Shown in pieces: positions 302-46,419 of a stretch of DNA of 64,000 bases (its first letter is position 1; each line of letters begins with the position of its first letter). The position numbers and the translations under genes were made by a program. This stretch comes from an uncultured virus (IMG/VR IMGVR_UViG_3300008108_000135) (lineage: Duplodnaviria > Heunggongvirae > Uroviricota > Caudoviricetes). The DNA is taken from IMG/VR virus record IMGVR_UViG_3300008108_000135; one strand, written 5' to 3'. Below the pieces are notes generated by a model, which worked only from the letters and a program-made list of their open reading frames with translations, was not told where the DNA came from and ran no database searches.

Positions 302-524
302 TGGTAAGACCTTAAGATTTACTCATTCGTGGGTCACCCCATCCTTACTACCTATACCTCGCCTTTAACATCCGTTCTACCCAAACCATCGTTTTTACCT
401 GTTAACCTCTCGGAAAACTTTGAGTACCTCCTCAACCTTTTAATCTGATAGGGGCTCCGTCTTGCTCGTTATTTCTAACTCCCTGTGGGATTCTGCTGAT
501 ATAGGTCTATCTGCTATCTTACCA
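302..524 (-). ncRNA. putative ~220-nt structured ncRNA
   Basis: Closing stem TGGTAAGAT/GTCTTACCA, long-range ACCTATA/TATAGGT, GNRA hairpins (GTTA-GAAA-TAAC, CC-GAGA-GG), TTGAG/CTCAA; starts 7 nt after boxA-like motif. Confidence 0.55.
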
Positions 525-531
525 ATCTAAT

Positions 532-543
532 ATGTCAAAGAAC
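532..543 (-). promoter_or_regulatory. boxA-like element GTTCTTTGACAT
   Basis: Identical 12-mer at 837-848 and 4888-4899, each just before stable-RNA genes; resembles rrn boxA. Confidence 0.6.
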
Positions 544-608
544 TTTTTCTTTTTGGGAGGACAGGTCCCACTCACATCATCAACCCTGTCCCCCCGTCTT
601 TCATATTA

Positions 609-616
609 CAAATCTA
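609..616 (-). promoter_or_regulatory. Bacteroidota-type promoter -7 element (TAGATTTG)
   Basis: TAnnTTTG match with upstream TTTG; followed by a GC-rich hairpin (555-594) and boxA. Confidence 0.55.
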
Positions 617-660
617 AGTATTCTATTTTAGACTGCCAAATGTTTTTTTACTTTTTTTTG

Positions 661-742
661 TACCCTCGGTGGGATTCGAACCCACACGCTCTTGGAGCAT
701 TAGTTCCTAAAACTAACGTGTCTACCATTCCACCACGAAGGC
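661..742 (-). tRNA. tRNA-Leu(TAG)
   Basis: Cloverleaf, anticodon arm TTAGT-TTTAGGA-ACTAA, long variable arm, TTCGAAT T-loop. Confidence 0.92.
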
Positions 743-749
743 ATTGTTG

Positions 750-822
750 AGGTCTCTAACGGATTCGAACCGTTATCTCTGGGTTACAAAACCAGAATAA
801 TAAGCCATTATACTAAGAGACC
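750..822 (-). tRNA. tRNA-Thr(TGT), atypical
   Basis: Acceptor GGTCTCT/AGAGACC, loop TTTGTAA, U31-C39 mismatch, TTCGAAT T-loop. Confidence 0.75.
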
Positions 823-836
823 TTATTTACACCGAT

Positions 837-848
837 ATGTCAAAGAAC
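837..848 (-). promoter_or_regulatory. boxA-like element GTTCTTTGACAT
   Basis: Exact repeat, 14 nt before tRNA-Thr. Confidence 0.6.
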
Positions 849-890
849 CGTTTGTTTTACAAATGTATAAAAAATAAACATACATAAAAC

Positions 891-919
891 AAAAAACCCC
901 TCTTTTTTGGAGAGGGGTT
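891..919 (-). terminator. intrinsic terminator / attenuator hairpin 2
   Basis: AACCCCTCT/AGAGGGGTT stem with U-tract, about 20 nt after leader ORF stop. Confidence 0.8.
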
Positions 920-940
920 CTTAAAATATTATTATTTAAG

Positions 941-1018
941 TTAACATACCTTCTCCGTTACAAAGGGCTTGTCCCCCTCCGTTCTCGCGTCTAAAAGTAT
1001 GTTAAGTAAATTTTTCAT
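941..1018 (-). CDS. putative attenuator leader peptide 2 (MKNLLNILLDARTEGDKPFVTEKVC)
   Basis: 25-codon ORF read by hand; its last codons and TAA are complementary to the 5' arm of the downstream terminator. Confidence 0.65.
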   Translation of the reverse strand: MKNLLNILLDARTEGDKPFVTEKVC

Positions 1019-1066
1019 TGTCTTTTTAATTAAATATATCAGAGTTTTTAAAAGTATCAAGGTTTT

Positions 1067-1399
1067 TTATTTTTTATAAAACCAAAAAGAGTTTTTACCA
1101 CAATTACCAAGTTTAAATAAACTACCTTCAAAGACATCATTTAATTTTTCAATAACTTCTTCGGCAATTTCTTCAGTATCCTCACCTGATTGTTTAAATT
1201 TGACCATAAATCTATCGTATGGTTTATCTGAGGATTCACGGTGACCACCAATCCATTCATCTTCACCAACGTAATCGTCCATAAGTTTGTTTAACTCAGA
1301 TTCAATTTTTTTATTTGATGGGTCTTTCTTACTTTCATTGATTACTCGTTTAACAAATCTTGTTAAATCCGATTCTGTTAGCCTAATTACTTTTTTCAT
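1067..1399 (-). CDS. hypothetical protein with MKKVIRLTESDL leader (putative virion internal protein)
   Basis: Start reassigned to ATG 1399 after ATATTTAT motif; leader shared with genes at 56904, 61858, 62649, 63197. Confidence 0.8.
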   Translation of the reverse strand: MKKVIRLTESDLTRFVKRVINESKKDPSNKKIESELNKLMDDYVGEDEWIGGHRESSDKPYDRFMVKFKQSGEDTEEIAEEVIEKLNDVFEGSLFKLGNCGKNSFWFYKK

Positions 1400-1433
1400 A
1401 TTAATAAATATTGCAATTGGTATAAAAAATAAT

Positions 1434-1552
1434 GTCCAGGTGTGGGAATCTAACCCACTTAGTCCATATTCGTTGCTTGTACGTCTGGGCAATTTATTGT
1501 TAGGACCGTCCCATTCGTCAATGGGGTGTGTAACACAATCCACCTACCTGAA
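1434..1552 (-). ncRNA. tRNA-like RNA (acceptor + T-arm, non-tRNA interior)
   Basis: TTCAGGT/ACCTGGA 7-bp stem plus GTGGG-TTAGATT-CCCAC T-arm; interior CCCATT/AATGGG hairpin; no anticodon arm. Confidence 0.5.
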
Positions 1553-1563
1553 GGTTTTATGTG

Positions 1564-1646
1564 TGGGATGTGATGGAGTCGAACCACCCGAGTCCGAAGA
1601 CAAACGATTTACAGTCGTTCCCGCTGCCCCTACGGTATAACATCCC
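1564..1646 (-). tRNA. tRNA-Tyr(GTA)
   Basis: Cloverleaf, loop CTGTAAA, long variable arm. Confidence 0.93.
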
Positions 1647-1651
1647 AAGTT

Positions 1652-1786
1652 TAGGAAATCAGAAGATGGTTGTGTGGACATCTGATTTTACGATTGGCAT
1701 TACTTTGGTGTATATCTCCCAACTCCGATGATACTGACCGATATACACTCTCGTGTCATTAGTATCACCCTTCCCCAATCAACCTA
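1652..1786 (-). ncRNA. putative pseudoknotted ncRNA between tRNA-Asn and tRNA-Tyr
   Basis: TAGG/CCTA closing stem, GATTGG/CCAATC, crossing helices TGATACT/AGTATCA and GTGTATATC/GATATACAC, AAATCAGA/TCTGATTT hairpin. Confidence 0.6.
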
Positions 1787-1789
1787 TTG

Positions 1790-1862
1790 CGACTCAGACA
1801 GGACTCGAACCTGTAACGTTCACATTAACAGTGTGATGCTCTCCCAATTGAGCTACTGAGTC
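1790..1862 (-). tRNA. tRNA-Asn(GTT)
   Basis: Cloverleaf, loop CTGTTAA, G73. Confidence 0.93.
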
Positions 1863-1868
1863 ATTTTG

Positions 1869-1940
1869 CGCGTCTCCAAGGACTCGAACCCTGACCAAGA
1901 GATTTGGAGTCACTTATGCTTGCCGTTACACCAAAGACGC
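1869..1940 (-). tRNA. tRNA-Trp(CCA)
   Basis: Cloverleaf, loop CTCCAAA, G73; one anticodon-stem mismatch. Confidence 0.88.
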
Positions 1941-1966
1941 AAATAATGAAATTAATTATTTCATTG

Positions 1967-2040
1967 AGGACAGAGAGGGATTTGAACCCCCGAATAATGG
2001 ATTTGCAGTCCACCCCTTTAAACCACTCAGGCATCTGTCC
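1967..2040 (-). tRNA. tRNA-Cys(GCA)
   Basis: Cloverleaf, loop CTGCAAA, U73. Confidence 0.93.
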
Positions 2041-2053
2041 TTGTTAATTTGTT

Positions 2054-2121
2054 TAGAGGTTGGTTTACATTCAGTGACCATGACTTGTACTTCGTCTCAA
2101 GGGGTAAACCCTATACCTCTA
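2054..2121 (-). ncRNA. putative small structured RNA
   Basis: TAGAGGT/ACCTCTA and GGTTTAC/GTAAACC nested stems in a tRNA spacer. Confidence 0.35.
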
Positions 2122-2124
2122 TTG

Positions 2125-2275
2125 TGACCCCAATGGGAATCGAACCCACCTTGTTAACTACATATAAGATGCTTTGACCTAAGTGACCCATATACTAGTA
2201 CTACGGGTGCCAACTACAAATTATCATCGTTAACCCACTCACCGCTTCGGTTGCGACCCTAACAGTTATGGAGTC
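2125..2275 (-). ncRNA. tRNA-like RNA with ~120-nt structured interior
   Basis: GACTCCA/TGGGGTC-A acceptor, GTGGG-TTCGATT-CCCAT T-arm, GTTAAC/GTTAAC helix enclosing ACCCGTA/TATGGGT hairpin. Confidence 0.6.
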
Positions 2276-2281
2276 GTATTG

Positions 2282-2353
2282 TAGCCCCTGTAGGACTCGA
2301 ACCTACACTATCTTGTATGTAAAACAAGCGCTTTTCCTTTAAGCTAAGGAGCT
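2282..2353 (-). tRNA. tRNA-Val(TAC)
   Basis: Cloverleaf, CTTGT-TTTACAT-ACAAG. Confidence 0.9.
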
Positions 2354-2360
2354 ATTTTTG

Positions 2361-2435
2361 TATCCCCGAAGAGATTCGAACTCTTGACCCCTCCATTAAA
2401 AGTGGAGTGCTCTAATCCTGCTGAGCTACGAAGAC
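2361..2435 (-). tRNA. tRNA-Lys(TTT)
   Basis: Cloverleaf, CTCCA-CTTTTAA-TGGAG. Confidence 0.92.
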
Positions 2436-2441
2436 ATTTTG

Positions 2442-2514
2442 TTGTGATGGAGGGATTCGAACCCCCGTAAACTATCGTATCAGGATAGCCCCTACACCGC
2501 TCGGGCACATCACA
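2442..2514 (-). tRNA. tRNA-Ile(GAT)
   Basis: Cloverleaf, CTATC-CTGATAC-GATAG. Confidence 0.88.
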
Positions 2515-2531
2515 GTTTTAGTTTCTTGGAA

Positions 2532-2539
2532 CAAATATA
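2532..2539 (-). promoter_or_regulatory. Bacteroidota-type promoter -7 element (TATATTTG) upstream of tRNA-Ile
   Basis: TAnnTTTG match 17 nt before the tRNA. Confidence 0.5.
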
Positions 2540-2570
2540 ACCGTTTTTTGGTATATACCGCAACATTATA

Positions 2571-3389
2571 CTAATTTTCTTTTTCTTTTTTTCTGTCTTT
2601 ATATGTTTTATTTACTTTATGTTTAGCAACCTCATCGTTAAAGTCAGATATTTCTTTATCAGTTATATTATTAATTCTGTTATTGGCGTTGATAATATAT
2701 TCCTCAGATATATCAATCCCAAAATAGTTATGCCCTAATAGTTTAGATGCAACCGCTGAAGTTCCACTACCCATATATGGGTCAATAATGTCACAACCTT
2801 CTTTATCATCCAATATTGAGTAAATACATCTTGTCGGTATTTCAATTGGAAATGGTGCGGGATGATTAGATACCGTAGATTTATTCATTTCAGGTCGTAA
2901 TCTCCAAACTGATGTCATTAATGCATGTTTAGATTTTAATTCCTCACCATTATCTTTTTTATTTATTGGTTTGTACAACCAATAAATTCTTTCCTCCACT
3001 TGCCAAAATCTCCAACCTCTAATATTTGCGGCAATTTGTCTATCCCAAATTATTTCTTGTTTAACTGTCCAATCAGTTTTTTTTAACCAATCCATCGGAT
3101 GAAACATTTCTCCTTTATCCCATCTAATTTTATGGTTATAAAAGAACGAACCTCCAGGTTTAATAACACGAAACAATTCGTTTAGTATTTCAATTTGCTC
3201 TATTTGGTATTCAGATTCATTTTTATTATCCGTAATATCCGAATATTTAATATCCTTAACCAAGACACCTTTTCTATTGTTTTGTTTATTATAAGGTGGG
3301 GATGTTACACCCATATCAAAAATGTTTTCATCAAGTGTTTTTAAAACATCATACACATCACCAAGTACTATATTGTTTTTAATTTCCAT
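2571..3389 (-). CDS. site-specific DNA methyltransferase (N4-C/N6-A, beta class)
   Basis: TSPPY catalytic motif, HPAPFP, DPYMGSGTS SAM-binding motif. Confidence 0.92.
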   Translation of the reverse strand: MEIKNNIVLGDVYDVLKTLDENIFDMGVTSPPYNKQNNRKGVLVKDIKYSDITDNKNESEYQIEQIEILNELFRVIKPGGSFFYNHKIRWDKGEMFHPMDWLKKTDWTVKQEIIWDRQIAANIRGWRFWQVEERIYWLYKPINKKDNGEELKSKHALMTSVWRLRPEMNKSTVSNHPAPFPIEIPTRCIYSILDDKEGCDIIDPYMGSGTSAVASKLLGHNYFGIDISEEYIINANNRINNITDKEISDFNDEVAKHKVNKTYKDRKKEKEN

Positions 3390-3987
3390 ATTCAATCAAC
3401 GATTTAAAAAACGGTTTTGTAAATTTATGTTCATATTCACTAATCATAGGTGAAATATATTCAAGTCTAAACGAATCTGAATTTTTAAAGTGTAAGTAAC
3501 TAAATTTAACACTTCTAACATATCTATTTAATTCATCACCGTTTGGTAAGTGTTTAGTTAATTGCCGTTCTATTTCATTTACAAAATCAACTGAGTTATA
3601 TTGGAAACTTACTAAAAACAATAATTTACCATCTAAAAACCCCGACACTACCATTTTAACTTTATCATCTTTATATTTTTTGTGTCTTTTCCATGTAAAG
3701 TCACTGAAATTACCTGAACCGTCAAACTTTTTAGTTGAATCTGATGATAAATTCTTTGGTTTAACTTCAATTGGGTATTCGTCAGAATCGTACCCTAATT
3801 TGTGAACACTTTGTTTTACCCCTAAAATCCCCAATGTCACCCCTTCTCTAAATAATGAGGAATTTTTATCATTAGACATCTCATTAAGTAACCCTAATAA
3901 TAACGTTTCTTTGGTTTTGTCATCAAGTTCTAATATTTTAGAATTATCTCCTAATGAATAGTTTAATTTTAATTCTGATAGATTCAT
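3379..3987 (-). CDS. putative type II restriction endonuclease
   Basis: Overlaps the MTase start; YDS..IEVK PD-(D/E)xK-like motif; about 200 aa. Confidence 0.6.
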   Translation of the reverse strand: MNLSELKLNYSLGDNSKILELDDKTKETLLLGLLNEMSNDKNSSLFREGVTLGILGVKQSVHKLGYDSDEYPIEVKPKNLSSDSTKKFDGSGNFSDFTWKRHKKYKDDKVKMVVSGFLDGKLLFLVSFQYNSVDFVNEIERQLTKHLPNGDELNRYVRSVKFSYLHFKNSDSFRLEYISPMISEYEHKFTKPFFKSLIEYGN

Positions 3988-4048
3988 ACAATACATTTTT
4001 AACAAAGTACGTAAATAAAATAAATTATTCAATACCATTAATTTTTTG

Positions 4049-4123
4049 TAGGGTAGACAGGACTCGAACCTGCACTATGTCCTCATCCCAAATGAGGCGG
4101 CCTACCAATTGGCCAACTACCCT
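4049..4123 (-). tRNA. tRNA-Pro(TGG)
   Basis: Cloverleaf, CCTCA-TTTGGGA-TGAGG. Confidence 0.9.
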
Positions 4124-4129
4124 ATATTG

Positions 4130-4199
4130 TACCGAGTATGGGGATTGAACCCACTTGACCATCCTTATGAGAGATAGTTCTTTACCACTAAGCCTCGGT
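4130..4199 (-). tRNA. tRNA-Met/Ile2(CAT), atypical short D-arm junction
   Basis: ACCGAG/CTCGGT acceptor, loop CTCATAA, T-arm present; positions 8-9 appear missing. Confidence 0.7.
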
Positions 4200-4206
4200 A
4201 TCTCAG

Positions 4207-4295
4207 CGGAGAATGTGGGATTCGAACCCACGCATCATGTTTCAGACCTATCACGTTAGCAATGTGACCCCTTAAACCATCTTGGGTAATTCTCC
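4207..4295 (-). tRNA. tRNA-Ser(GCT)
   Basis: Cloverleaf, loop TTGCTAA, long variable arm, G73. Confidence 0.9.
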
Positions 4296-4299
4296 GTAG

Positions 4300-4371
4300 A
4301 AGTCTCTGAAGGATTTGAACCTTCTCTAAAACATCCGTAGTGTTTCGTGCTGTCCGTTACACCAAGAGACC
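4300..4371 (-). tRNA. tRNA-Arg(ACG)
   Basis: Cloverleaf, AAACA-CTACGGA-TGTTT. Confidence 0.9.
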
Positions 4372-4377
4372 AAAGTG

Positions 4378-4451
4378 GGTAACTAATGGGAATCGAACCC
4401 ATGGCACAAGGAACCACAATCCTTTGCTCTACCTACTGAGCTATAGCTACC
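4378..4451 (-). tRNA. tRNA-His(GTG)
   Basis: G-1:C73 pair, loop TTGTGGT. Confidence 0.93.
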
Positions 4452-4471
4452 ATAAAATTTTATTTTCTATG

Positions 4472-4544
4472 TGGAGAGGGTGGGAATCGAACCCACATTG
4501 CTGGATTTTCAGTCCAGTGCCTTGACCAACTTGGCAACCTCTCC
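4472..4544 (-). tRNA. tRNA-Phe(GAA)
   Basis: Cloverleaf, CTGGA-CTGAAAA-TCCAG. Confidence 0.92.
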
Positions 4545-4550
4545 TTATTG

Positions 4551-4624
4551 TTGTCCTGGAAGGATTTGAACCTCCAATTTCCTCGTTCAAAGCGAGGTGA
4601 CTTTGCCAGTTCGTCTACAGGACA
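4551..4624 (-). tRNA. tRNA-Gln(TTG)
   Basis: Cloverleaf, CCTCG-CTTTGAA-CGAGG, U1-A72. Confidence 0.92.
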
Positions 4625-4630
4625 GTGAAC

Positions 4631-4768
4631 TCACTTTTTGAGTTTTTTTAAAATCTTTTTTAAAAGTTTTGATTTTACTTTAATTTTAATCCCTTCTTTT
4701 CTTAAATTTTCCTGACTTGAGTTGAAGGTCCCCTCAAGTACAATTTTAATAGTTTCTTTTTTTCCCAT
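4631..4768 (-). CDS. small basic hypothetical protein (45 aa, MGKKETIKIV...KKLKK)
   Basis: ORF fills the spacer between tRNA-Ser and tRNA-Gln. Confidence 0.4.
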   Translation of the reverse strand: MGKKETIKIVLEGTFNSSQENLRKEGIKIKVKSKLLKKILKKLKK

Positions 4769-4784
4769 AATTTATTTTTTAGCG

Positions 4785-4871
4785 AGGAGGGTGTGGGACT
4801 TGAACCCACAAGACCTATTACACGTCTTACTCGTTTTCAAGACGAGCTCTTCATCCAGCCAGATACCCTCC
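4785..4871 (-). tRNA. tRNA-Ser(TGA)
   Basis: CTCGT-CTTGAAA-ACGAG, long variable arm; short D-arm, U73. Confidence 0.82.
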
Positions 4872-4887
4872 GAATTTTTATACCAAT

Positions 4888-4899
4888 ATGTCAAAGAAC
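4888..4899 (-). promoter_or_regulatory. boxA-like element GTTCTTTGACAT
   Basis: Directly abuts the attenuator U-tract and precedes the first tRNA. Confidence 0.6.
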
Positions 4900-4930
4900 A
4901 AAAAACCCCCGAACTTGTGGTCCGAGGGCT
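4900..4930 (-). terminator. intrinsic terminator / attenuator hairpin 1
   Basis: AGCCCTCGGAC-CACAA-GTTCGGGGGTT plus U-tract. Confidence 0.82.
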
Positions 4931-4950
4931 TATATCATAGTTAATCTTTT

Positions 4951-5067
4951 TTAACTTATAAAACACTTCGGACTACCATATGACATGCTCGGATACCAAT
5001 TGCGGTTACACGAGATGACAATCTGTGATTGTTTAAAATTAATCATATGTTTACCAAATGTTTTCAT
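4951..5067 (-). CDS. putative attenuator leader peptide 1 (MKTFGKHMINFKQSQIVISCNRNWYPSMSYGSPKCFIS)
   Basis: 38-codon ORF between promoter 5087-5094 and terminator; 3' end complementary to terminator 5' arm. Confidence 0.75.
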   Translation of the reverse strand: MKTFGKHMINFKQSQIVISCNRNWYPSMSYGSPKCFIS

Positions 5068-5086
5068 TGTTTTTTAATAACTATTA

Positions 5087-5094
5087 CAAATATA
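5087..5094 (-). promoter_or_regulatory. Bacteroidota-type promoter -7 element (TATATTTG) driving leader 1 and the tRNA operon
   Basis: TAnnTTTG 19 nt before leader ATG. Confidence 0.6.
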
Positions 5095-5129
5095 GGAAAA
5101 ATCCTCGTTTAATCAATATTTCTTTAAAA

Positions 5130-5309
5130 TTATATTTTTTTCACTGAATAAATGTGACCTGAATCTGAATTTGTTTGAAATATCTCTTTCATCTTATCAG
5201 CCTCCTTTTCAGATTCAAACTCCCAAACTTCATTATCAGAATTTAAAATTATAACAGGTAACCATTTACCTGATTTTTTGTTTTTAATGCTTTTGATTAT
5301 TACATACAT
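5130..5309 (-). CDS. hypothetical protein (59 aa, MYVIIKSIK...)
   Basis: ORF read by hand, preceded by TACATTTG (5328-5335). Confidence 0.6.
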   Translation of the reverse strand: MYVIIKSIKNKKSGKWLPVIILNSDNEVWEFESEKEADKMKEIFQTNSDSGHIYSVKKI

Positions 5310-5359
5310 AGTTTTAGATTTTTTTTACAAATGTAACGTTTTTTTGGTTACGGTTCAAC

Positions 5360-8059
5360 TTAGTATTTGTTTTTTCTTGAAAATGGGTTATTTGAGTCGT
5401 CACGTTTTCTTTTTTGAGGGAAGAACTCCCTATTTTGAGCCGCCAAAGTACCCTTTTTAATTTCAATAAGTTTATTCCTGTCGTTTGGCACATGTTCTCT
5501 AACAGGTTTCACATTTTTTGATGGATGGTATATATCAGTTCTATTTAAAACTTGATTGATTAAATCATAATTTATTTTGGAATCAGAATTTTTTGGTTTA
5601 ACATTTAATTTAATAACGTCAGTTAATAGAGTATCTATTTTTTGTTTATTAATTATGAATTTTTCATACTCTTCATCAATAATCTTTTTATTAAAAATTT
5701 CATAAAAAGATTCGGTTACTAAATTTTCTATCGGTCCAAAAGTTTTTCTTTTTTTACTTAAATTATAATATTTACCTCTCATTTGAGAAGATAAATTAGT
5801 ATCGGGATGTTGAGTTAAACTATTTTTATGGACCCTTCTATAAAACCCTAAAGATTTGGTATGGATTAATTTGACATTATTTTTATATAATCTATTCATT
5901 AGGTCAGAATCCGCCGCACATCTCCACCCCTCAAAACCATTCATGTCTAAAAATAATTTTTTCTCAATTCCAAAAACACCTTCACCATATGTGTTTGCAT
6001 TTGATTTTTCCAAATTAATGTTTTTAACTTCTTCGTTGAAATCTATATACATAGGCTTTATTAGCTTATGTGTTGATTTATAACGAATGATGTCTTGGAC
6101 AAGTTCTTCTTTCATAATGTCATCAGAATCAAAAAACATTAAATAATCAGAATTTGAAATCAGTGATAAACTATTTTTAACAATATAAGGTCCGACATTT
6201 TGATTAAAGTAATAGAATCTAATTCTTGGGTCAAATTTACTGTCTTGAATATAAGATAGTGTTTTTTTGCACCCATCAATTCCAACTAATATCTCAACAT
6301 TTAAATCTTTAATTGATGTTAATACAGAATCTAAACATTCGGTTAAATAATTTAAAACATTATACGTTGGGATGATGATTGATATGTCCTTTTTATTGTT
6401 TTTTATATCAAATTCATTAACCATTTTATTTAACGTTAATAAATCTTTTAATACCAAAATATTCTCATTTTTATCGTTATTACCAATAACTAACCCTTTA
6501 TTACCAGGTATCCAATTAATTAAATTTTCTAATATTTGATGTGAGAAACTTTTTTTATTATTATCCACCGAAAATAAAATTTTACTATTAAGTTTTTCTT
6601 TAAAATTATTTTCTAAGTAAGTAAGATGGTGCATATACATTTGAGAAATATAATATTTTTTTTCGGGCATTTTTCTTGCAGGGTCAGAAAGAACTGAACT
6701 ACTTATATGTCTACCATATTTTCTTTCATCAATTTTATAAATTGATGGTACGTAAAGTTTGTCCTCAACAAAGTAATATTTATCACTTTTATAATATGAC
6801 ACGATTGGTGAATATAATGTGTCAATACCATTCTCATTCATGAATTTTATTTCATCAGTAACATATCTATCATTATAACATTCATCATTATCTAAAGTTA
6901 GAATATAATCACAATTCGCGTTTTTACATTTAGATAAACCAACATTTCGTTTGTCTATCATTCCGATAATCTTATCTACCACATCTTCATCATATAACAC
7001 CAATTCATCTATATAACCACAATCAACCAATTCTTGTAATAAAATATTATTTTCAATTGAGCCGATTTCACCCGAAAAACTTTTTTTCTGATGAACCACA
7101 CATATGTAATCAACAACATTAATAATTGATTCAATTGATTTTTTTAATACGTCAACATTATAAAAGGAATTATATGAAACCCCAACTTTTAAATTATTAA
7201 ATTGTTTAGTTTTAAACCTATGAGATATTGTTCTACTAAAATCTAACCATTTATTGTTAGTCAACAATTCAGTTAACTTTTTTTCTAAAGTTTCATAATT
7301 TTCAAATTCGTGGATTAAATCACCATAATAATTCTTTTTACTTAGTTCCGATACAACACATTTACTATTATTTAATAAATAAAATAACCTTACTTGTTCT
7401 TGTATTGACGATTCATAAAAATGTAAATTTAAAATAATTTTAGTTTCTGAAATTATATTATCTAACTTATCCGAAAAATCTTTAGGTAAAAATTTAATTC
7501 CCGAATTATTTAACTCAACGTTATCTACATCAAAATTGTCACCAATAACAACTAAATTAAATTTAGAATTTATTTTTTTTAAAATTTCAAATCGTTTTTT
7601 ATTTATTGCACCATAAAATAAAATGTCGTATTTAGGGTTTTGATTAACCTTTATGTTTTCTAAAGATTTAGAATATTTAAGTGGTACAAATTTTACTTTA
7701 TTGTAACCAAGAGTTTCTAAAAACCACTTATTAGATAAATCATATTCCCATATTTCATCACATTCATCCAACCATTTTTTAATGTGAGAGGTTCTATGTT
7801 TCACATGTTTTGAATTACTATTAGGGTTAAACCAATTTGGGTTATAATTAAAAAGTTGCTCTAATTGGTAAACTATTATTTTTTTATTAGGGTATTTTTC
7901 TCTATAGAAATTAATCTCTTTACCTAAATTATATCCTAATATAACCAGACAATTATGGTATTTAGAATTATCAGAATATAATTCTTCAACCATTGTCTTT
8001 ACATGTAAAAATGTACCAACATCACTATCTCTGTTGATTACACATTTAAGTTTCTCCAT
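5360..8059 (-). CDS. multidomain glycosyltransferase (C-terminal GT2 domain plus further GT-like domains)
   Basis: ISIIIPTYN...FFDSDD GT2 motifs; second LDNDE DxD-like region; N-terminal DILFYG..RLFYLL GT-B-like region. Confidence 0.8.
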   Translation of the reverse strand: MEKLKCVINRDSDVGTFLHVKTMVEELYSDNSKYHNCLVILGYNLGKEINFYREKYPNKKIIVYQLEQLFNYNPNWFNPNSNSKHVKHRTSHIKKWLDECDEIWEYDLSNKWFLETLGYNKVKFVPLKYSKSLENIKVNQNPKYDILFYGAINKKRFEILKKINSKFNLVVIGDNFDVDNVELNNSGIKFLPKDFSDKLDNIISETKIILNLHFYESSIQEQVRLFYLLNNSKCVVSELSKKNYYGDLIHEFENYETLEKKLTELLTNNKWLDFSRTISHRFKTKQFNNLKVGVSYNSFYNVDVLKKSIESIINVVDYICVVHQKKSFSGEIGSIENNILLQELVDCGYIDELVLYDEDVVDKIIGMIDKRNVGLSKCKNANCDYILTLDNDECYNDRYVTDEIKFMNENGIDTLYSPIVSYYKSDKYYFVEDKLYVPSIYKIDERKYGRHISSSVLSDPARKMPEKKYYISQMYMHHLTYLENNFKEKLNSKILFSVDNNKKSFSHQILENLINWIPGNKGLVIGNNDKNENILVLKDLLTLNKMVNEFDIKNNKKDISIIIPTYNVLNYLTECLDSVLTSIKDLNVEILVGIDGCKKTLSYIQDSKFDPRIRFYYFNQNVGPYIVKNSLSLISNSDYLMFFDSDDIMKEELVQDIIRYKSTHKLIKPMYIDFNEEVKNINLEKSNANTYGEGVFGIEKKLFLDMNGFEGWRCAADSDLMNRLYKNNVKLIHTKSLGFYRRVHKNSLTQHPDTNLSSQMRGKYYNLSKKRKTFGPIENLVTESFYEIFNKKIIDEEYEKFIINKQKIDTLLTDVIKLNVKPKNSDSKINYDLINQVLNRTDIYHPSKNVKPVREHVPNDRNKLIEIKKGTLAAQNREFFPQKRKRDDSNNPFSRKNKY

Positions 8060-25125: not shown

Positions 25126-26997
25126 TTACTTGACTTCTTCAAATTCTACATCTGAAAAATCAGTATCATTTGTTGATTCGTTGGTTGATTCATTATTAGA
25201 ATTCTCATACAAGTTTTGAGAAACTGATTGGAATTTATTGTTTAATGTTTCCATTTTAGATTCCAAAATAGTTAACTCTTTTTTATCTACAGATTCTTTT
25301 AAACTACTGATAAGTTCTGTTAATTCATTCTTATCAGTTTCTGATATTTTTTCCTCTAAGTCTTTTAAAGACCTTTCAGATTGAAATACTGTAGAATCCG
25401 CTTTGTTAATTAATTCAACTTCTTCTCTCGCCTTTTGGTCTGATTCAGCATTTGCTTCGGCATCTGCCTTCATTTTATCAATTTCTTCTTTGGATAAACC
25501 TGATGAAGACTCAATTCTAATTGATTGAACTTTATTTGTTCCTTTATCAACTGCCGATACATTAATAATACCATTAGCGTCAATGTCAAAAGTCACTTCA
25601 ATTTGAGGGACTCCTCTTTGTGATGGTGGAATATCGGTCAATTGGAATCTACCAATAGTTTTATTGTCTTTGGCCATCGCTCTTTCACCTTGTAATACAT
25701 GAATATCAACACTTGGTTGATTGTCAACTGCTGTTGAGAATACCTGAGATTTTTTAGTTGGGATTGTTGTGTTAGATTCAATTAACTTAGTAAACACCCC
25801 ACCCATAGTCTCAATACCTAATGAAAGTGGTGTAACGTCTAATAACAAGACATCTTTAACATCTCCAGCCAATACACCTCCTTGAATTGCCGCACCTAAC
25901 GCAACAACCTCATCAGGATTAACCCCTTTTGAAGGTTCTTTACCGAAGAAGTTTTTAACCGCCTCTTGAATTGCGGGAATTCTTGTTGTCCCCCCAACCA
26001 ATATAATTTCATCAATATCAGTTGTTTTAATACCCGCATTTTTCAACGCTGTTTTACAAGGTTCAATAGTTCTTTTAACCAAATCATCAACAAGTTGTTC
26101 AAATTTAGATTTTGTTAATGTTAACACTAAATGTTTTGGGATTCCATCAACAGGAATTAAATATGGTAAATTAATTTCGGTTGATGATGATGAAGACAAC
26201 TCAATTTTTGCTTTTTCAGCAGACTCTTTCAGTCTTTGTAATGCCATTGGGTCCTGACTTGGGTCAATATTATGTTCTTTTTTAAACTCTCCAACCAAAT
26301 AATCAATAATTGCTTGGTCAAAGTCATCACCACCCAAATGAGTATCACCATCAGTAGCCATTACCTCAAAAACACCATCACCTAACTCAAGGATAGAAAC
26401 GTCATGAGTTCCACCACCACAGTCAAATACAACGACAACGGCATCTTTTGATTTTTTATCAAGTCCGTAAGCCAATGCCGCCGCGGTTGGTTCATTGATA
26501 ATTCGTCTAACTTTTAATCCCGCAATTTCACCCGCTTCTTTAGTTGCTTGACGTTGAGCATCATTAAAGTACGCAGGAACAGTAATAACCGCCTCAGTAA
26601 CTGTAGTACCCAAATAGTCCTCAGCCGTCTTTTTCATTTTCTGAAGGATAGTTGCTGAAATTTCTTGTGGTGAGTATTCCTTACCATCAATTTTAACTCT
26701 AGGTGAGTTATTTTTACCTTTAATTACGGAATACGGAACTTTACCAACTTCATCTTTAGATTCGTCGTAGGTTGACCCCATAAATCTTTTAATTGAATAA
26801 ACAGTTTTAGTTGGGTTTGTCACAGATTGTCTTTTAGCGGGGTCACCCACTTTTCTTTCCCCTTCATTCACATACCCCACAATTGATGGTGTAGTTCTTT
26901 TACCTTCACTGTTTGGGATAACAATAGGTTCATTACCTTCCATTACCGCAACACACGAATTTGTTGTACCTAAATCAATTCCAATAATTTTACTCAT
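25126..26997 (-). CDS. dnaK: chaperone DnaK (Hsp70)
   Basis: [35 protein letters not shown]; full length. Confidence 0.98.
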
Positions 26998-28242: not shown

Positions 28243-30003
28243 TTAATTTTTTATTTTTATTTTTATTTTGGTCCCTATTTTGTTCTTCTCACAAGATATC
28301 TCAAAACCATGTTCTTTAAGTATTGCAATACAAATATTTAAACCCAACCCTGTACCAGATTCTTTTTGTCCTTCCTTTCTAGTATACGGTTGAGATAATT
28401 TCTCAAAGTCTTTTTGGGTTATCCCTCTACCATTATCTTGGATGATAATGTGACTTTCTTCACTATAAATTTTTACAAATTTAGTATCACTATCATTATA
28501 TTTTAACCCGTTTCTAATTAGATTATCAACTGCGGTACAAAATAAAGATTCATTAACTTCTAATGTAGGTAACTCTTCTAATACGACTTGTGACTTATAA
28601 GATGTACTTGATAAGTAACTATCTAATATTTCTTTTACGTTACAAACAGTTTTTTCTAAAACAGCATCTTTCTTAACTAAATTAGTAAACTCATAAACCC
28701 CCTTATATACTTTTTGCGAATGTTTTAACCCTTCCCTCAACATTTTAAGAGGACCTTCAATTTTTAACCTTTCAATATCATCATTAGTTAATCGTCGTTC
28801 TAGTGAACTCAACCCTCTTGGGATGTAAGTATTTATCCCTGAGTGCATATCGTGTCTTAGTATTTTTGCCGCATGCTCTAAATAGGTGTTTTTTTTGTCA
28901 ATCTCTTTTAAAGTTTTCATTAACTCTGTTACATCATATCTTATTGACATAAATCCTGTAAGGTTATTGTCGCTATCAAATTCGGCCTTAATATATGAAT
29001 CAACCCAATACAATTCACCGTTTTTATTTTTATTAGTTACGACATTGTTCCATATTTTATTATCCACTAATATTGTTTTATACATATCGGACCAATATTT
29101 TTTTGGGTGAGCCCCTGAATTAACAATATTATGGTCTTGACCTAAAACTTCAGATAAAGACCAACCTGAAACTTCTTCAAACCTCTTATTAACATAAGTT
29201 ATTTTACCATTTTTATCCGCTTTACTAACCAATACTGAATAGTCAATAAATCCTTCAATGTCTTTAATATTTTTACTTACGTTATTTGATATTTTAACTG
29301 AATACGCAAATGAATAAAGTGATGATAAAATTTGCGCAAAATTAACTTCTAAGTTAGTCCACTCTCGTTTAGTTAGACTTTCAATACAGATAACGCCTAT
29401 AATATCACCCCCATATATTATGGGAACGTCTAACATAGACTTAATACCTAATGGTTTAAGGTAACTATCTTTAAAACAATTTGTCGCCTGATGAGTCTCA
29501 GCATCATTGGCAATTATTATTGGATTATATATTAATGACGTAAAATAAGACTCAAAATCTTTTTTAAATAATTCAGTTCCACTATACCATTTATTTTCAC
29601 TTTTAACGAATAATTGTTCACAAATTATTGATGTTTTATCCTCATTATATAACCATATGGAACATCTATCAGTGTTTATTGTTTCAGTCACTTCATTTGT
29701 TAATATTTTAGCACCATCAATAGTATTACCAACATAAAACAAAGGATTATGAGATTGGGATATTAAAACATCAATTAGTTTTTTAGTATATTCAGATTCT
29801 ATTTCAATAACCTTATTTCTTTTTAGGTATTCAATAATAAAAACTATTAAACAAAAAACAATGAACGCTTTAGAATAAAAACTAAACCTTAAAACACTCT
29901 CCGTAACTAACATTAATTCGGTATATATTAAGGTATGCATCGTTAAAAATGAAACTAAACCTATAATCCCAAAGAATAACGATATTTTTGATATTTTATT
30001 CAT
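28243..30003 (-). CDS. membrane sensor histidine kinase (GAF + PAS + HATPase)
   Basis: 2 TM; RCSIW..SMLDVPI GAF; YVN..F..SG PAS; RHD H-box; NLIRNGLKY, DNGRG, GTGLGL. Confidence 0.92.
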   Translation of the reverse strand: MNKISKISLFFGIIGLVSFLTMHTLIYTELMLVTESVLRFSFYSKAFIVFCLIVFIIEYLKRNKVIEIESEYTKKLIDVLISQSHNPLFYVGNTIDGAKILTNEVTETINTDRCSIWLYNEDKTSIICEQLFVKSENKWYSGTELFKKDFESYFTSLIYNPIIIANDAETHQATNCFKDSYLKPLGIKSMLDVPIIYGGDIIGVICIESLTKREWTNLEVNFAQILSSLYSFAYSVKISNNVSKNIKDIEGFIDYSVLVSKADKNGKITYVNKRFEEVSGWSLSEVLGQDHNIVNSGAHPKKYWSDMYKTILVDNKIWNNVVTNKNKNGELYWVDSYIKAEFDSDNNLTGFMSIRYDVTELMKTLKEIDKKNTYLEHAAKILRHDMHSGINTYIPRGLSSLERRLTNDDIERLKIEGPLKMLREGLKHSQKVYKGVYEFTNLVKKDAVLEKTVCNVKEILDSYLSSTSYKSQVVLEELPTLEVNESLFCTAVDNLIRNGLKYNDSDTKFVKIYSEESHIIIQDNGRGITQKDFEKLSQPYTRKEGQKESGTGLGLNICIAILKEHGFEISCEKNKIGTKIKIKIKN

Positions 30004-42657: not shown

Positions 42658-43956
42658 TTAATTACTTAATGGTGCCTTAATACTTGGGTGTGATTGATAA
42701 TCTATTAATTTAATTAAACTATAATCTAATTCATCAAATGGAACTTTAAATCCATCAGTTCTTCTCATATCCTCACATATCATTAATTTTGGTAACGGAT
42801 ATGGTTCTCTTGTATGTCCAATTATTATTTGTTTTTTAATACCTTCATTCATAGGACCATTTGGATATAGTGTCAGTGATTCTTCAAATATAGGTTGACC
42901 AATCTGTTCCTTTGCTTGCTCAATGTGATTCAAGTACAAGTGAGTATCACCTAAATTACCAATCAATTCATCAGGAACCATATTAACTTCTTTTGCAATT
43001 ATTTCAAGTAGTAAACCATAAGAAGCAATGTTGAATGGTAAACCTAAGAATGTATCCACTGAACGTTGGTTCCACATTAATGAGATTGCTCGTTTAGGTA
43101 TTGATGAAAAACATTCAAGTTCAATTAAAGGCTTACCTGTGTATGGGTCTTTATTATTTTGCCACCCATTGACAAATATTTGATTAGCTGATTCTATAGT
43201 GTCAGTTTTAATGTCTCCAGCATATCCACCAGAACTTTTTGCTAAACTCCAATTAACATAGATTTCTTTAATTTTATCTAAGTCATCGTACCAACTCAAC
43301 TCTCTTGTATAAACTTGAAATCCATAATGACAAGGTGGAAGTGTCATTTGGTCCAATTCACCTACATTCCAAGCTGAAACCATTAGTCGTCTTGAGTCTG
43401 GGTTTGTTTTAAGGTCGTTGATTAAATTTTGGATTTGGTCTATCGGGTTTCTTTCCCAACTTCCCCATTCAGTTCCAATACTATTTTCTATTTTACCTCT
43501 TTCTATTGTTAGAATTTTAGGTACATCCCACTTTCTCCATTGCTTCCCATACACGGGACCTAATTCACCCCACTTATTAGCAAACTCATCATTTGTTTTG
43601 ATTTTGTTAATGAATTCTTCTTGTGTGTAGTAATCTGGTACTCCACCTAATTCTTCATTTAGTTTAGCACCTTTGGTAAGATAATTCTTATACGCATCGC
43701 CATCCCAAATATGACAATCATTATCAACAAGGTATTTGATGTTTGTATCACCACTCAAGAACCATAACAATTCTGTTACAATTCCTTTGAAATACATTTT
43801 CTTTGTTGTGAGTAAAGGAAATCCTTCTGACATCTTGTGTCTGATTTGTCTTCCGAATACTGATAGTGTTCCTGTACCCGTTCTATCCTCCTTGCGAATG
43901 CCATTATCTAGGATGTCTTGTAGGAGCGCTTGGTAAGATTTATCTAACGTGTTCAT
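42658..43956 (-). CDS. thyA: thymidylate synthase with insertions
   Basis: DRTGTGT, FPLLTTKK, ELLWF, LGPVYG.QWR, LPPCH, QRSVD.FLGLPFN, GDTHLY.NH. Confidence 0.96.
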   Translation of the reverse strand: MNTLDKSYQALLQDILDNGIRKEDRTGTGTLSVFGRQIRHKMSEGFPLLTTKKMYFKGIVTELLWFLSGDTNIKYLVDNDCHIWDGDAYKNYLTKGAKLNEELGGVPDYYTQEEFINKIKTNDEFANKWGELGPVYGKQWRKWDVPKILTIERGKIENSIGTEWGSWERNPIDQIQNLINDLKTNPDSRRLMVSAWNVGELDQMTLPPCHYGFQVYTRELSWYDDLDKIKEIYVNWSLAKSSGGYAGDIKTDTIESANQIFVNGWQNNKDPYTGKPLIELECFSSIPKRAISLMWNQRSVDTFLGLPFNIASYGLLLEIIAKEVNMVPDELIGNLGDTHLYLNHIEQAKEQIGQPIFEESLTLYPNGPMNEGIKKQIIIGHTREPYPLPKLMICEDMRRTDGFKVPFDELDYSLIKLIDYQSHPSIKAPLSN

Positions 43957-45225: not shown

Positions 45226-46419
45226 TTATTCATTCTCAATTTTAAAGATAATTTTATTAAAATTCAATAGATAAATTCCTTTATCAAAATTTTCCAACTT
45301 TATGTTGAAGTAGTTACTTCCCATAGATATATTAATTTCTTCTTGATGTAATACTTTCCCCATTAAATCGGTAATACAGATTATTTGTGGTCCTCGGATA
45401 TCCGAATCAAACATTATATTAATATTATCACTAAAAGGGTTTGGTGTGACTGTTATATTTTTAATTTCATCAATTATATTAACCGAATACCAATCAGTTA
45501 TCGTGTTTTTACCATCAATATCCGTCTGTTTTAATCTATAGTAGATTACTGAAGAATTTAAATCATAATCAAATGAGTTATAATCGGATATTGTCTGACT
45601 GTTTCCGACCGCATCTACAGTATCTATGGTTTCATAACTAACCCCATTGATTGTTTTTTCAATAGTAAAATAGTCATTATTTTTTTCAGATGCAGTAACC
45701 CATTTAATGTTAACCACCCCATTTTTATATGTTGGTTTAAAGTCTAACAATTCAATTGGTAATGCCGATGTTGTACAAAATTTAATGTCGGGTCTTGCAT
45801 ATAACCTTGTACCTGACGTAGGTCCCATTGAGCCGTCTTGGGCTCCGTACTTCATTGTTCTTGTTGAGGTTGCGGTATTATAGTTGGTGTAGTGAAATAT
45901 TGGGTATCCTGAAGCATATGAACCGTCATTATTGTCAACATGTACAATTAGATTTGTCGCACCATCATAACTAAACGGGGATGTTAAAGTTATGGTTTTC
46001 CAAGCATCTGAGGCATTGAATGTAAATGAACCGTCAAACACTTTTGTCCAAGAGGTGATTCCTTGAGCCACATTCACTCCTGTTAGTCTATTAACCCCCG
46101 ATACATTATTTGTACTAGCCCAACCTGATAAAGTGGTATACGCAAAATATATTTGAACATTATTGAAGGTATACGGACCTGTTTGTGAATACCCTGATTG
46201 GAACCCATCAACATACCATGCAATGGAACCTATTGTTTTGGCCGCACCAATATCCGCAGCCCGATATATACTTGAGGACCAACTATAATCGTATAAACCA
46301 TATATTGGTGCTAGTGGTGTTGTTTGTGAATTACCATATGTTCCATCAGATATGGTTACACAAGTTTGTGATATTAACCAATATGGGAATATCAACAACA
46401 TAAATAAACCTAACTTCAT
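45226..46419 (-). CDS. T9SS type A sorting domain-containing secreted protein
   Basis: Signal peptide; LPIELLDF..W.TASEKNNDYF.IE..YYRLKQTD.DG; C-terminal PNPF..I.DL.GK..GIYLL. Confidence 0.85.
   Translation of the reverse strand: MKLGLFMLLIFPYWLISQTCVTISDGTYGNSQTTPLAPIYGLYDYSWSSSIYRAADIGAAKTIGSIAWYVDGFQSGYSQTGPYTFNNVQIYFAYTTLSGWASTNNVSGVNRLTGVNVAQGITSWTKVFDGSFTFNASDAWKTITLTSPFSYDGATNLIVHVDNNDGSYASGYPIFHYTNYNTATSTRTMKYGAQDGSMGPTSGTRLYARPDIKFCTTSALPIELLDFKPTYKNGVVNIKWVTASEKNNDYFTIEKTINGVSYETIDTVDAVGNSQTISDYNSFDYDLNSSVIYYRLKQTDIDGKNTITDWYSVNIIDEIKNITVTPNPFSDNINIMFDSDIRGPQIICITDLMGKVLHQEEINISMGSNYFNIKLENFDKGIYLLNFNKIIFKIENE

Follow-up and report, generated by a model that had tools for sequence, protein, structure and literature searches.

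A 64,000-nt stretch of DNA (hereafter, the window) from an uncultured phage of the class Caudoviricetes (IMG/VR record IMGVR_UViG_3300008108_000135) carries on its minus strand a 38-codon open reading frame (ORF; 5067-4951) that, judged from its sequence and setting, is probably the leader peptide of a ribosome-mediated transcription attenuator gating the first block of the phage's tRNA genes. The ORF lies behind a promoter that we take to be of the Bacteroidota type from its -7 and -35 boxes, and in front of an intrinsic terminator, a boxA-type motif and a tRNA array (Table 1). A first-pass annotation of this DNA had described a trp/his-type attenuation geometry with leader codons matching the downstream tRNAs, and this proposal is now supported by the recurrence of the module in other phages, by the co-variation of leader and tRNA content and by an antiterminator. 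Its individual parts were also recovered. The ORF scan returned the same ATG-initiated frame and peptide; the -7 box, the boxA-type motif past the terminator and a promoter-like box inside the array, entered there as a caveat, were all located; and the terminator, placed at 4930-4900, consists of a 12-pair stem (4931-4903) and a T run. This terminator is positioned 20 nt past the leader stop and 28 nt short of the first tRNA, with a gap of 1 nt between its T run and the boxA-type motif.

The array behind the module (array 1) had been credited with 15 tRNAs in 4871-1564. ARAGORN confirms 14 of them (4871-1563), and the fifteenth, with anticodon CAT (Met; 4199-4130), is a weak Rfam match only (28.0 bits; gathering threshold, 29). 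Their order is Ser(TGA), Gln, Phe, His, Arg(ACG), Ser(GCT), the weak CAT tRNA, Pro, Ile, Lys, Val, Cys, Trp, Asn and Tyr. A second array (array 2) begins at 822-660 with tRNA-Thr and tRNA-Leu. A metagenome contig (L004) from the same phage shows that it continues past the edge of the window, where tRNAs for Asp, Glu, Leu(TAA), Gly, Ala and Arg(TCT) follow. Together, the tRNAs of this phage serve nearly all amino acids. The match between leader 1 and tRNAs is thus confined to the first sub-array, because further tRNAs lie at 822-660 and beyond the window edge.

Leader codons, tRNA arrays and their recurrence in phages

Codons 7-28 of leader 1 specify exactly 14 amino acids (H, M, I, N, F, K, Q, S, V, C, R, W, Y and P), and the run of residues within that set is 25 long. 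A run of this kind, with 22 or more residues and all 14 amino acids represented, was counted in 1 of 993 open 38-codon pieces from the six frames of the window, presumably leader 1 itself (the script tallied pieces and did not name them), and in 2 of 200,000 random-codon peptides drawn from the base composition of the strand. The first-pass annotation had stated that these codons use exactly the amino acids of the array and had called for such a chance estimate; the set is confirmed and proves rare by chance, while the exactness of the match depends on codon choice and window end. When decoding is considered, array 1 can read 30 of the 37 codons that follow the start, and array 2 only 1 of 37.

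A second module of the same layout spans 1038-830 on the minus strand and fronts tRNA-Thr. Its leader covers all seven amino acids of array 2 (7/7), among them L, A, D and E. These four residues are missing from the leader 1 peptide, as had been noted from the sequence and is confirmed here, and their absence is explained by leader 2, which contains them and fronts their tRNAs. Eleven of the 24 leader 2 codons are readable by array 2 and nine by array 1. Homologues of leader 2 occur in two other phage contigs (L300 and L276) and in a family of 15 sequences.

For a wider view, loci from two scans of IMG/VR phages were pooled with longer stretches of five contigs, and the counts that follow are among the matches listed. 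The phage contigs contain 126 distinct boxA contexts. An intrinsic terminator is present at most 110 nt upstream in 65 of them, and 62 of these 65 also have an ATG-initiated ORF of 15-70 codons stopping 8-37 nt before the stem (50 distinct peptides). Counted by distinct module, an ORF of 20-70 codons ends 8-40 nt before the terminator in 62 of 64, compared with 9.3% of shuffles of the 200 nt upstream. The ORF is therefore kept in relatives, and its loss there, which had been named beforehand as an outcome that would speak against the proposal, is not what we observed. Two of the 50 peptides are likely non-members, with ORFs of 15 and 43 codons and no antiterminator. In the remaining 48 modules, the distance from stop to terminator is 20-37 nt (median, 25) and the ORF measures 22-65 codons (median, 29.5); 36 of the 48 leader ORFs share their first five bases (ATG, then AA), and 32 of the 48 modules have a similar -7 box no more than 60 nt upstream of the ATG.

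The leader peptides fall into many families without detectable mutual similarity. Leader 1 has a close relative of 37 codons (L300/L275) and a distant one of 39 codons (L276/L028), and the sole gap within the ORF in a MAFFT alignment of the window with L300 is 3 bases long. Within leader families, variation at the first, second and third codon positions amounts to 16, 18 and 25 changes, respectively, and 16 of 41 variable codons differ by synonymous changes only. This distribution points to little selection on the peptide itself; the weak third-position bias fits an unselected peptide and is no independent proof of coding. Many leaders also carry a short A/T-rich hexamer about 11-22 nt (about 15 nt) past the ATG. 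In some modules (L093, L095, L102 and L113) it stands in another frame, so that its action may be on RNA or DNA.

Searches anchored outside the module were less productive. The 801-nt region returned from INPHARED two weak tRNA-Ser matches and no relative, a locus search with the neighboring glycosyltransferase protein found identical contigs only, and an alignment-based metagenome scan yielded mostly distant glycosyltransferase homologues, the four scanned loci of which (L006, L008, L031 and L032) were without tRNAs. A 64-nt terminator-plus-boxA query gave weak matches among cultured phages and no cultured model phage. Two candidates for a cultured example were rejected: in Bacillus phage Grass the terminator precedes a sigma-factor gene and there is no tRNA, and Prevotella phage Lak-A2 has a promoter and boxA-like motifs with neither leader nor adjacent tRNA. 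The latter (L353, 1460-1630) has a boxA-like motif after each of two promoter-like boxes, with no leader ORF, terminator or adjacent tRNA, an arrangement which implies that the boxA-type signal serves megaphages in other contexts too.

Co-variation of leader and tRNA content across related phages, a test proposed with the original annotation, was found at both the amino acid and codon levels. The analysis used 27 representatives of the 50 peptides, one per family (similarity ratio of <0.6) with at least 4 tRNAs at the locus; the remaining 23 were set aside as near-duplicates or for their low number of tRNAs. Some arrays were clipped at locus ends and some tRNAs were missed by ARAGORN, which adds noise rather than signal. 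Leaders cover a fraction of 0.940 of the amino acids of their arrays, versus 0.786 ± 0.027 with permuted arrays, and the fraction of leader residues falling within the array set is 0.540, versus 0.415 ± 0.017; in neither case did any of 20,000 permutations reach the observed value. Single amino acids follow the same trend. Trp is present in the leader in 15 of 16 modules with tRNA-Trp and in 3 of 11 without it, and the corresponding figures are 15/16 and 4/11 for Tyr, 14/15 and 4/12 for Pro, 12/12 and 3/15 for Glu, and 9/9 and 9/18 for His. For Cys, Met and Ser, no association between leader and tRNA was found among the 27 representatives.

Codon choice within a single amino acid is also informative. 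Arg codons in leaders that front arrays with only Arg(ACG) are 12 CGN and 2 AGR, against 1 and 3 for arrays with only Arg(TCT) (Fisher's exact test, p = 0.04). Leu codons number 0 CTN and 18 TTR where the array has only Leu(TAA), against 23 and 15 where it has only four-box Leu tRNAs (p = 6e-6). Five phages with two modules each provide an internal comparison: of their 310 leader codons, 168 are readable by the leader's own array and 46 by the other one, and of the 310 leader residues, 196 are served by the own array and 69 by the other. Coverage of the amino acids of the own array is complete in 9 of these 10 leaders; the first leader of L329, whose array holds only Lys, Met and Tyr tRNAs, is the exception in showing no preference for its own array. 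Finally, the matching residues are not evenly distributed along the leaders, since they account for 373 of 647 residues before the last 8 codons and for 91 of 216 inside them (p = 8e-5).

Competing RNA structures, boxA-type motif and RNA-library contigs

In folds of the nascent leader 1 RNA up to the terminator loop, the minimum-energy structure joins codons 31-35 to the 5' arm of the terminator, as had been claimed for the 3' end of the leader. The resulting antiterminator hairpin encloses the stop codon and the spacer, and its 3' strand is the terminator 5' arm itself. The 214-nt leader 1 region as a whole folds with a minimum free energy of -49.3 kcal/mol (z = -3.47; 0 of 200 shuffles as stable), and in this full-length fold the 5' end of the ORF (region 1) pairs with part of the antiterminator 5' strand, making it a possible anti-antiterminator on modeled structure, a candidate counterpart of the 1:2 pairing by which ribosome and polymerase are synchronized in trp.

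The competing helix is a family trait. When the terminator 5' arm was allowed to pair with the last 13 codons plus the spacer, the mean antiterminator gain over 50 modules was -10.5 kcal/mol, versus -3.3 kcal/mol in shuffles, with 40 of 50 modules at an empirical p of ≤0.05. Thirty-one control terminators from the same DNA that do not stand beside a boxA-type motif gave -1.2 kcal/mol, versus -1.8 kcal/mol in shuffles, and only 1 of the 31 was significant. In the alignment (A2) of the 15-sequence family that includes leader 2, the antiterminator helix is 94.2% paired, compared with 42-65% when the partner columns are slid, and it contains two compensatory pairs (covariation of 0.160, versus 0.075 ± 0.017; 0 of 500 shuffles as high). 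For comparison, the terminator in the same alignment is 98.0% paired, with a covariation of 0.201 versus 0.099. When L276 is compared with the window, both sides are altered in 3 of the 6 core pairs of the antiterminator, and the terminator accommodates these changes via G-U pairs in the alignment. Compensatory change in this pairing, which the first-pass annotation had proposed to look for, is thus seen both in the 15-sequence family and between the window and L276.

The effect of a ribosome was modeled by masking a 30-nt footprint in 48 modules. With the ribosome at the stop codon, the mean antiterminator gain was -3.0 kcal/mol; placed 6, 8 or 10 codons before the stop, it left gains of -1.6, -3.2 and -5.0 kcal/mol, respectively, and 12 codons before the stop the mean gain was -6.7 kcal/mol, with 33 of the 48 modules at ≤-5 kcal/mol. 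These models suggest that a ribosome would block the antiterminator only within the last 8 or so codons or at the stop; folding with the ORF 3' end masked had been outlined as a check in the first-pass annotation. Without a modeled ribosome, 29 of the 48 modules favor the antiterminator (≤-5 kcal/mol). Untranslated transcripts would therefore read through, unlike those of the trp attenuator.

The 18-mer that follows the terminator, which resembles the boxA consensus, is overrepresented in the window, where it has 3 matches with up to 3 mismatches against 0.20 expected. Exact copies were found in more than 112 IMG/VR stretches and more than 121 stretches of cellular genomes, both counts being minima. 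Among 80 genome loci examined, 23 have it after tRNA-Ile/Ala genes, and all 5 Bacteroidota loci scanned with Rfam place it in the rRNA spacer between tRNA-Ala and the 5' end of 23S rRNA, at 12-23 nt from the latter. Many of the other genome matches are in Clostridia contigs and share a common context without a nearby tRNA that, judged by its flanks, looks like a coding region. By analogy, the 18-mer probably recruits the host rRNA antitermination factors (NusB/S10); because it lies so near the 23S end, it may instead be a processing signal. In phages, the motif lies 3-11 nt upstream of the first array tRNA in 32 of 47 modules. The T run of the terminator is within 4 nt of the motif in 9 of 23 modules of an unbiased scan and also in module 1 of the window, and where the two abut there is no room for a separate promoter. 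This fusion of T run and boxA-type motif occurs in 72 phage stretches, and its 24-mer form was found in none of 185,579 species genomes. Three IMG/VR contigs that carry the fusion (L310, L345 and L346) are labeled as giant-virus bins and may be misbinned large phages. The 18-mer was also encountered in a highly conserved context without tRNAs in many gut-metagenome viral contigs (L042, L044, L046 and about 30 further phage loci) and in a Bacteroides genome contig (L215), which may represent another structured RNA or an rRNA-operon leader.

Public sequencing runs provided a view of the locus in RNA libraries. At least half of the sampled words of the window are contained in 14 of 24 runs, all of which are probably DNA, and the RNA runs X16-X18 contain 15-21% of them; X15 (29%) is probably DNA. 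Contigs from these runs were mapped onto window positions 500-6000. In the metatranscriptome X16, a 331-nt contig with a depth of 17 spans 4734-5064, i.e., from the first leader codons through the terminator and boxA-type motif into tRNA-Ser. X18, from the same study, has a contig over 4735-5014, and X17, from another study, has one over 4866-5063. Positions 5100-6000 are without cover in all three, bearing in mind that uncovered stretches in RNA libraries are no proof of silence. The RNA-library contigs are consistent with transcription from a start near the leader that continues past the terminator, and the coincidence of contig ends at 5063 and 5064 in two studies is a weak hint of a 5' end. 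Strain variants in these libraries, comprising substitutions and 1- and 2-base insertions, concentrate in the spacer between stop and terminator (4932-4957); the terminator and boxA-type motif are invariant in the contigs except for one substitution at 4885.

Proposed mechanism, competing explanations and known systems

In the mechanism that we propose, transcription would begin at the Bacteroidota-type promoter and a ribosome would trail the polymerase along the leader. Once at the last 8 or so codons or the stop, the ribosome would cover the 5' strand of the antiterminator, allowing the terminator to form and to stop the polymerase 1 nt short of the boxA-type motif. If the ribosome is delayed at least 10 codons earlier, on any codon read by the array's tRNAs, the antiterminator would capture the terminator 5' arm and the polymerase would continue through the boxA-type motif, a probable recruiter of host rRNA antitermination factors, into the tRNA genes. 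Accumulating phage tRNAs would then speed up reading of the leader and the array would lower its own transcription, the result being a supply-and-demand loop multiplexed across 13-14 amino acids. Module 2 would act likewise on the Thr/Leu/Asp/Glu/Gly/Ala/Arg(TCT) block. We infer the direction of the switch, which is taken from thermodynamic folds, as well as the role of the boxA-type motif, the feedback and the translation of the ORF.

Several observations weigh against this interpretation. Leaders also contain residues without a cognate tRNA in their own array, and those of leader 2 are about evenly split, 13 of 24 matching its own array and 12 of 24 the other one. The permutation p values overstate independence, since leaders and arrays are partly related by descent. 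Once the 3' arm is present, the terminator of the window wins at equilibrium in every masked state, and the switch must therefore be kinetic, like classical attenuators. Taken alone, leader 1 is marginal in the antiterminator test (-7.8 kcal/mol, versus -3.6 kcal/mol in shuffles; 14 of 200 shuffles as low), and when the entire ORF is left free to fold it is indistinguishable from shuffles (z = -0.44; family mean z, -1.1), a weaker and mixed signal attributable to competing upstream pairings. The RNA-library contigs reveal neither transcript ends nor strand, and such libraries may contain DNA. Moreover, of the 11 modules in which terminator and boxA-type motif are at least 35 nt apart, 7 have a promoter-like box between the two, among them module 2 of the window and module 1 of L276, and the box inside array 1 could drive its distal tRNAs. 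Attenuation may thus be one input among several.

These promoter-like boxes, along with the terminator forming at equilibrium, are also what would be expected if the leader were an independent mini-gene or small RNA, with tRNAs using their own promoters and a terminator that merely insulates them. We regard this as unlikely, because it leaves unexplained why leaders track tRNAs down to the codon level and why a competing helix absent from control terminators is conserved. It is further at odds with the fusion of T run and boxA-type motif, which leaves no promoter space, with RNA-library contigs that span the terminator, and with the little selection on the peptide (16/18/25 by codon position). 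Similarly improbable is that the same parts obey another logic, in which translation of the leader promotes read-through, the ribosome pushing the polymerase or melting the terminator, or in which what the leader adjusts is the stability or processing of the RNA rather than termination. It is true that the switch takes its direction only from thermodynamic folds with a masked footprint, and the preference of 29 of 48 modules for the antiterminator without a ribosome could be accommodated by such schemes. The 20-37 nt between the stop and the terminator stem, however, put the terminator out of reach of a terminating ribosome; what a ribosome at the stop covers instead is the helix in competition with the terminator; and matching codons are enriched before the last 8 codons, as predicted if stalling leads to read-through. 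The least likely explanation, that the region is an untranslated structured RNA forming the leader or trailer of a tRNA transcript and ending in the terminator, with the ORF a chance frame, would suit the unusually stable fold (z = -3.47) and the short motif kept about 15 nt past the ATG in differing frames in some modules but can hardly be reconciled with an ATG-initiated ORF of 20-70 codons in 62 of 64 modules (9.3% of shuffles), with a 3-base sole alignment gap between the ORFs of the window and L300, and with translated content that co-varies with tRNA identity, for which an untranslated RNA has no reason.

Leader-peptide attenuators are classically represented by trp, his, leu and pheA and by the multivalent thr and ilvGMEDA leaders of enterobacteria. 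The phage modules resemble these amino acid operon attenuators in having a short leader ORF with cognate regulatory codons, a terminator before the regulated genes, and an antiterminator that uses the terminator 5' arm and is predicted to become unavailable once a ribosome has reached the ORF end. The thr and ilvGMEDA leaders, which already sense more than one amino acid, are nearest in logic. In contrast to these systems, the phage modules are predicted to regulate tRNA genes rather than biosynthetic enzymes and are carried by a phage; their leaders are near-censuses of up to 17 amino acids, with one to three codons each, instead of runs of one codon; and their terminator is followed by a boxA-type motif. 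Neither sequence nor Rfam comparisons showed similarity to known attenuators. Rfam covariance models applied to 4872-5085 gave NsiR1 as the sole match (21.2 bits; gathering threshold, 39; E = 0.91), so that no family was reached, and near module 2 only a Phe_leader match of 25.6 bits (gathering threshold, 55; E = 0.52) was obtained.

Closer in function are the pheST attenuator with its pheM leader and the T-box riboswitches, which similarly use transcription attenuation to tie genes of the translation apparatus to tRNA supply or charging. A T-box binds uncharged tRNA without a ribosome, whereas the sensor of the phage module is a predicted translated ORF, and pheM senses one amino acid and controls a synthetase, whereas the phage module would control tRNA genes. 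The phage 18-mer is identical to the motif of the Bacteroidota rRNA spacer but is placed after an attenuator and before phage tRNAs. What is new here is the target (tRNA genes), the carrier (phages), the census leader matched to its block, and the fusion of a boxA-type motif to an attenuator; the parts and their geometry were already known.

Why phages carry tRNAs has been debated for decades, with compensation for codon usage, replacement of decaying host tRNAs and escape from tRNA-cleaving immunity as the main proposals, and to our knowledge the regulation of phage tRNA arrays has received barely any attention. Full-text literature searches, as far as the texts could be consulted, retrieved no account of leader-peptide control of tRNA genes or of phage tRNA arrays. 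It is in this context that we put forward, tentatively, a wider reading: in Bacteroidota phages, and perhaps in others, each leader might be a census of exactly the codons of its sub-array and serve as a multiplexed sensor of codon hunger, an OR gate in which a shortage of any of up to 17 tRNA species switches on the whole block until phage tRNAs restore decoding. The arrays would then be inducible, self-limiting modules for counter-defense or translational autonomy, and not constitutive cargo. The natural trigger could be routine supply-demand feedback or codon-usage mismatch, host tRNA decay or tRNA-cleaving immune nucleases. Phage tRNAs are reported to be able to replace host tRNAs cut by defense nucleases (PMC10264068, PMC11555353, PMC12409363). 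This counter-defense work makes the defense reading plausible and, as far as the texts could be consulted, contains nothing on the regulation of phage tRNA arrays.

If this interpretation is true, a phage would gauge decoding capacity directly and make tRNA on demand, and leader-peptide attenuation would reach tRNA genes and take in a near-complete census instead of one or a few amino acids. Phages would have taken a boxA-type signal of host rRNA operons for their tRNA operons. In practical terms, an annotation rule would follow in which a small ORF that precedes a terminator tells, through its amino acid content, which tRNA block to expect downstream, and the module might offer a compact natural sensor of tRNA supply usable in Bacteroidota.

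Feature map and neighboring genes

Table 1. Coordinates of the two putative attenuator modules, their tRNA arrays and associated promoter-like boxes in the window
Feature	Position	Strand	Details
Putative promoter of leader 1	5116-5087	minus	-35-like hexamer at 5116-5111 and Bacteroidota-type -7 box at 5094-5087; 19 nt 5' of the ATG
Leader ORF 1	5067-4951	minus	ATG start; 38 codons plus stop
Region 1 (ORF 5' end)	5064-5054	minus	Pairs with 4971-4960 in the full-length minimum-energy fold
Predicted antiterminator hairpin	4977-4918	minus	5' strand in codons 31-35 (core, 4973-4968); 3' strand core, 4925-4920
Intrinsic terminator (putative attenuator)	4931-4900	minus	Stem 4931-4903, 12 pairs (6 G-C), 5-nt loop, T run; -15.8 kcal/mol
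boxA-type 18-mer	4898-4881	minus	Identical to the Bacteroidota rRNA spacer motif
tRNA-Ser(TGA), first of array 1	4871-4784	minus	ARAGORN
tRNA sub-array 1	4871-1563	minus	14 tRNAs by ARAGORN plus weak CAT tRNA; three ORFs interspersed
Internal promoter-like -7 box	2539-2532	minus	17 nt 5' of tRNA-Ile; mapped from position 9192 of L004
Promoter-like -7 box of leader 2	1038-1031	minus	Last base off consensus
Leader ORF 2	1018-941	minus	25 codons plus stop; contains L, D, A, R(AGA), T, E and G
Terminator of module 2	922-892	minus	Terminator scan; covariation in the 15-sequence alignment
Second promoter-like -7 box, between terminator 2 and boxA-type motif 2	867-860	minus
boxA-type motif 2	847-830	minus	2 mismatches
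Start of tRNA sub-array 2	822-660	minus	Thr(TGT), Leu(TAG); ARAGORN

A third boxA-type motif, with 3 mismatches, lies downstream of tRNA-Leu at 542-525 (minus strand). At this motif, L004 has a promoter-like box before it, neither leader ORF nor terminator, and Asp, Glu and more tRNAs after it. Within array 1, a very basic 45-codon ORF (4768-4631, minus strand) sits between tRNA-Ser(TGA) and tRNA-Gln, and a similar one occupies the same place in L028. Two protein genes are also found inside the array (4038-2571, minus strand), coding for an N6/N4 DNA methyltransferase (PF01555) and a 219-aa protein of PHROG 3210; in the relative L275, the tRNA array is contiguous and lacks both genes.

The phage is large and AT-rich, and its nearest database record is 61 kb long and estimated to be 22% complete. 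Hallmarks of Bacteroidota are seen in its promoter type, in its boxA-type motif and in a protein that carries a Por-secretion domain at the C terminus. Sequencing runs that contain DNA of the window are mostly labeled as freshwater or lake water, and three are labeled as fungus metagenome. Elsewhere in the window, the minus-strand genes at 25126-26997, 28243-30003, 42658-43956 and 45226-46419 are listed together for Hsp70/DnaK, histidine-kinase-like, thymidylate synthase and Por-sorting proteins. The phage encodes a full-length Hsp70/DnaK homologue (850 bits), a histidine-kinase-like protein with GAF and PAS domains, and a protein with the Por-secretion C-terminal sorting domain. Its thymidylate synthase, of 432 aa, is matched in two stretches, which suggests an insertion.

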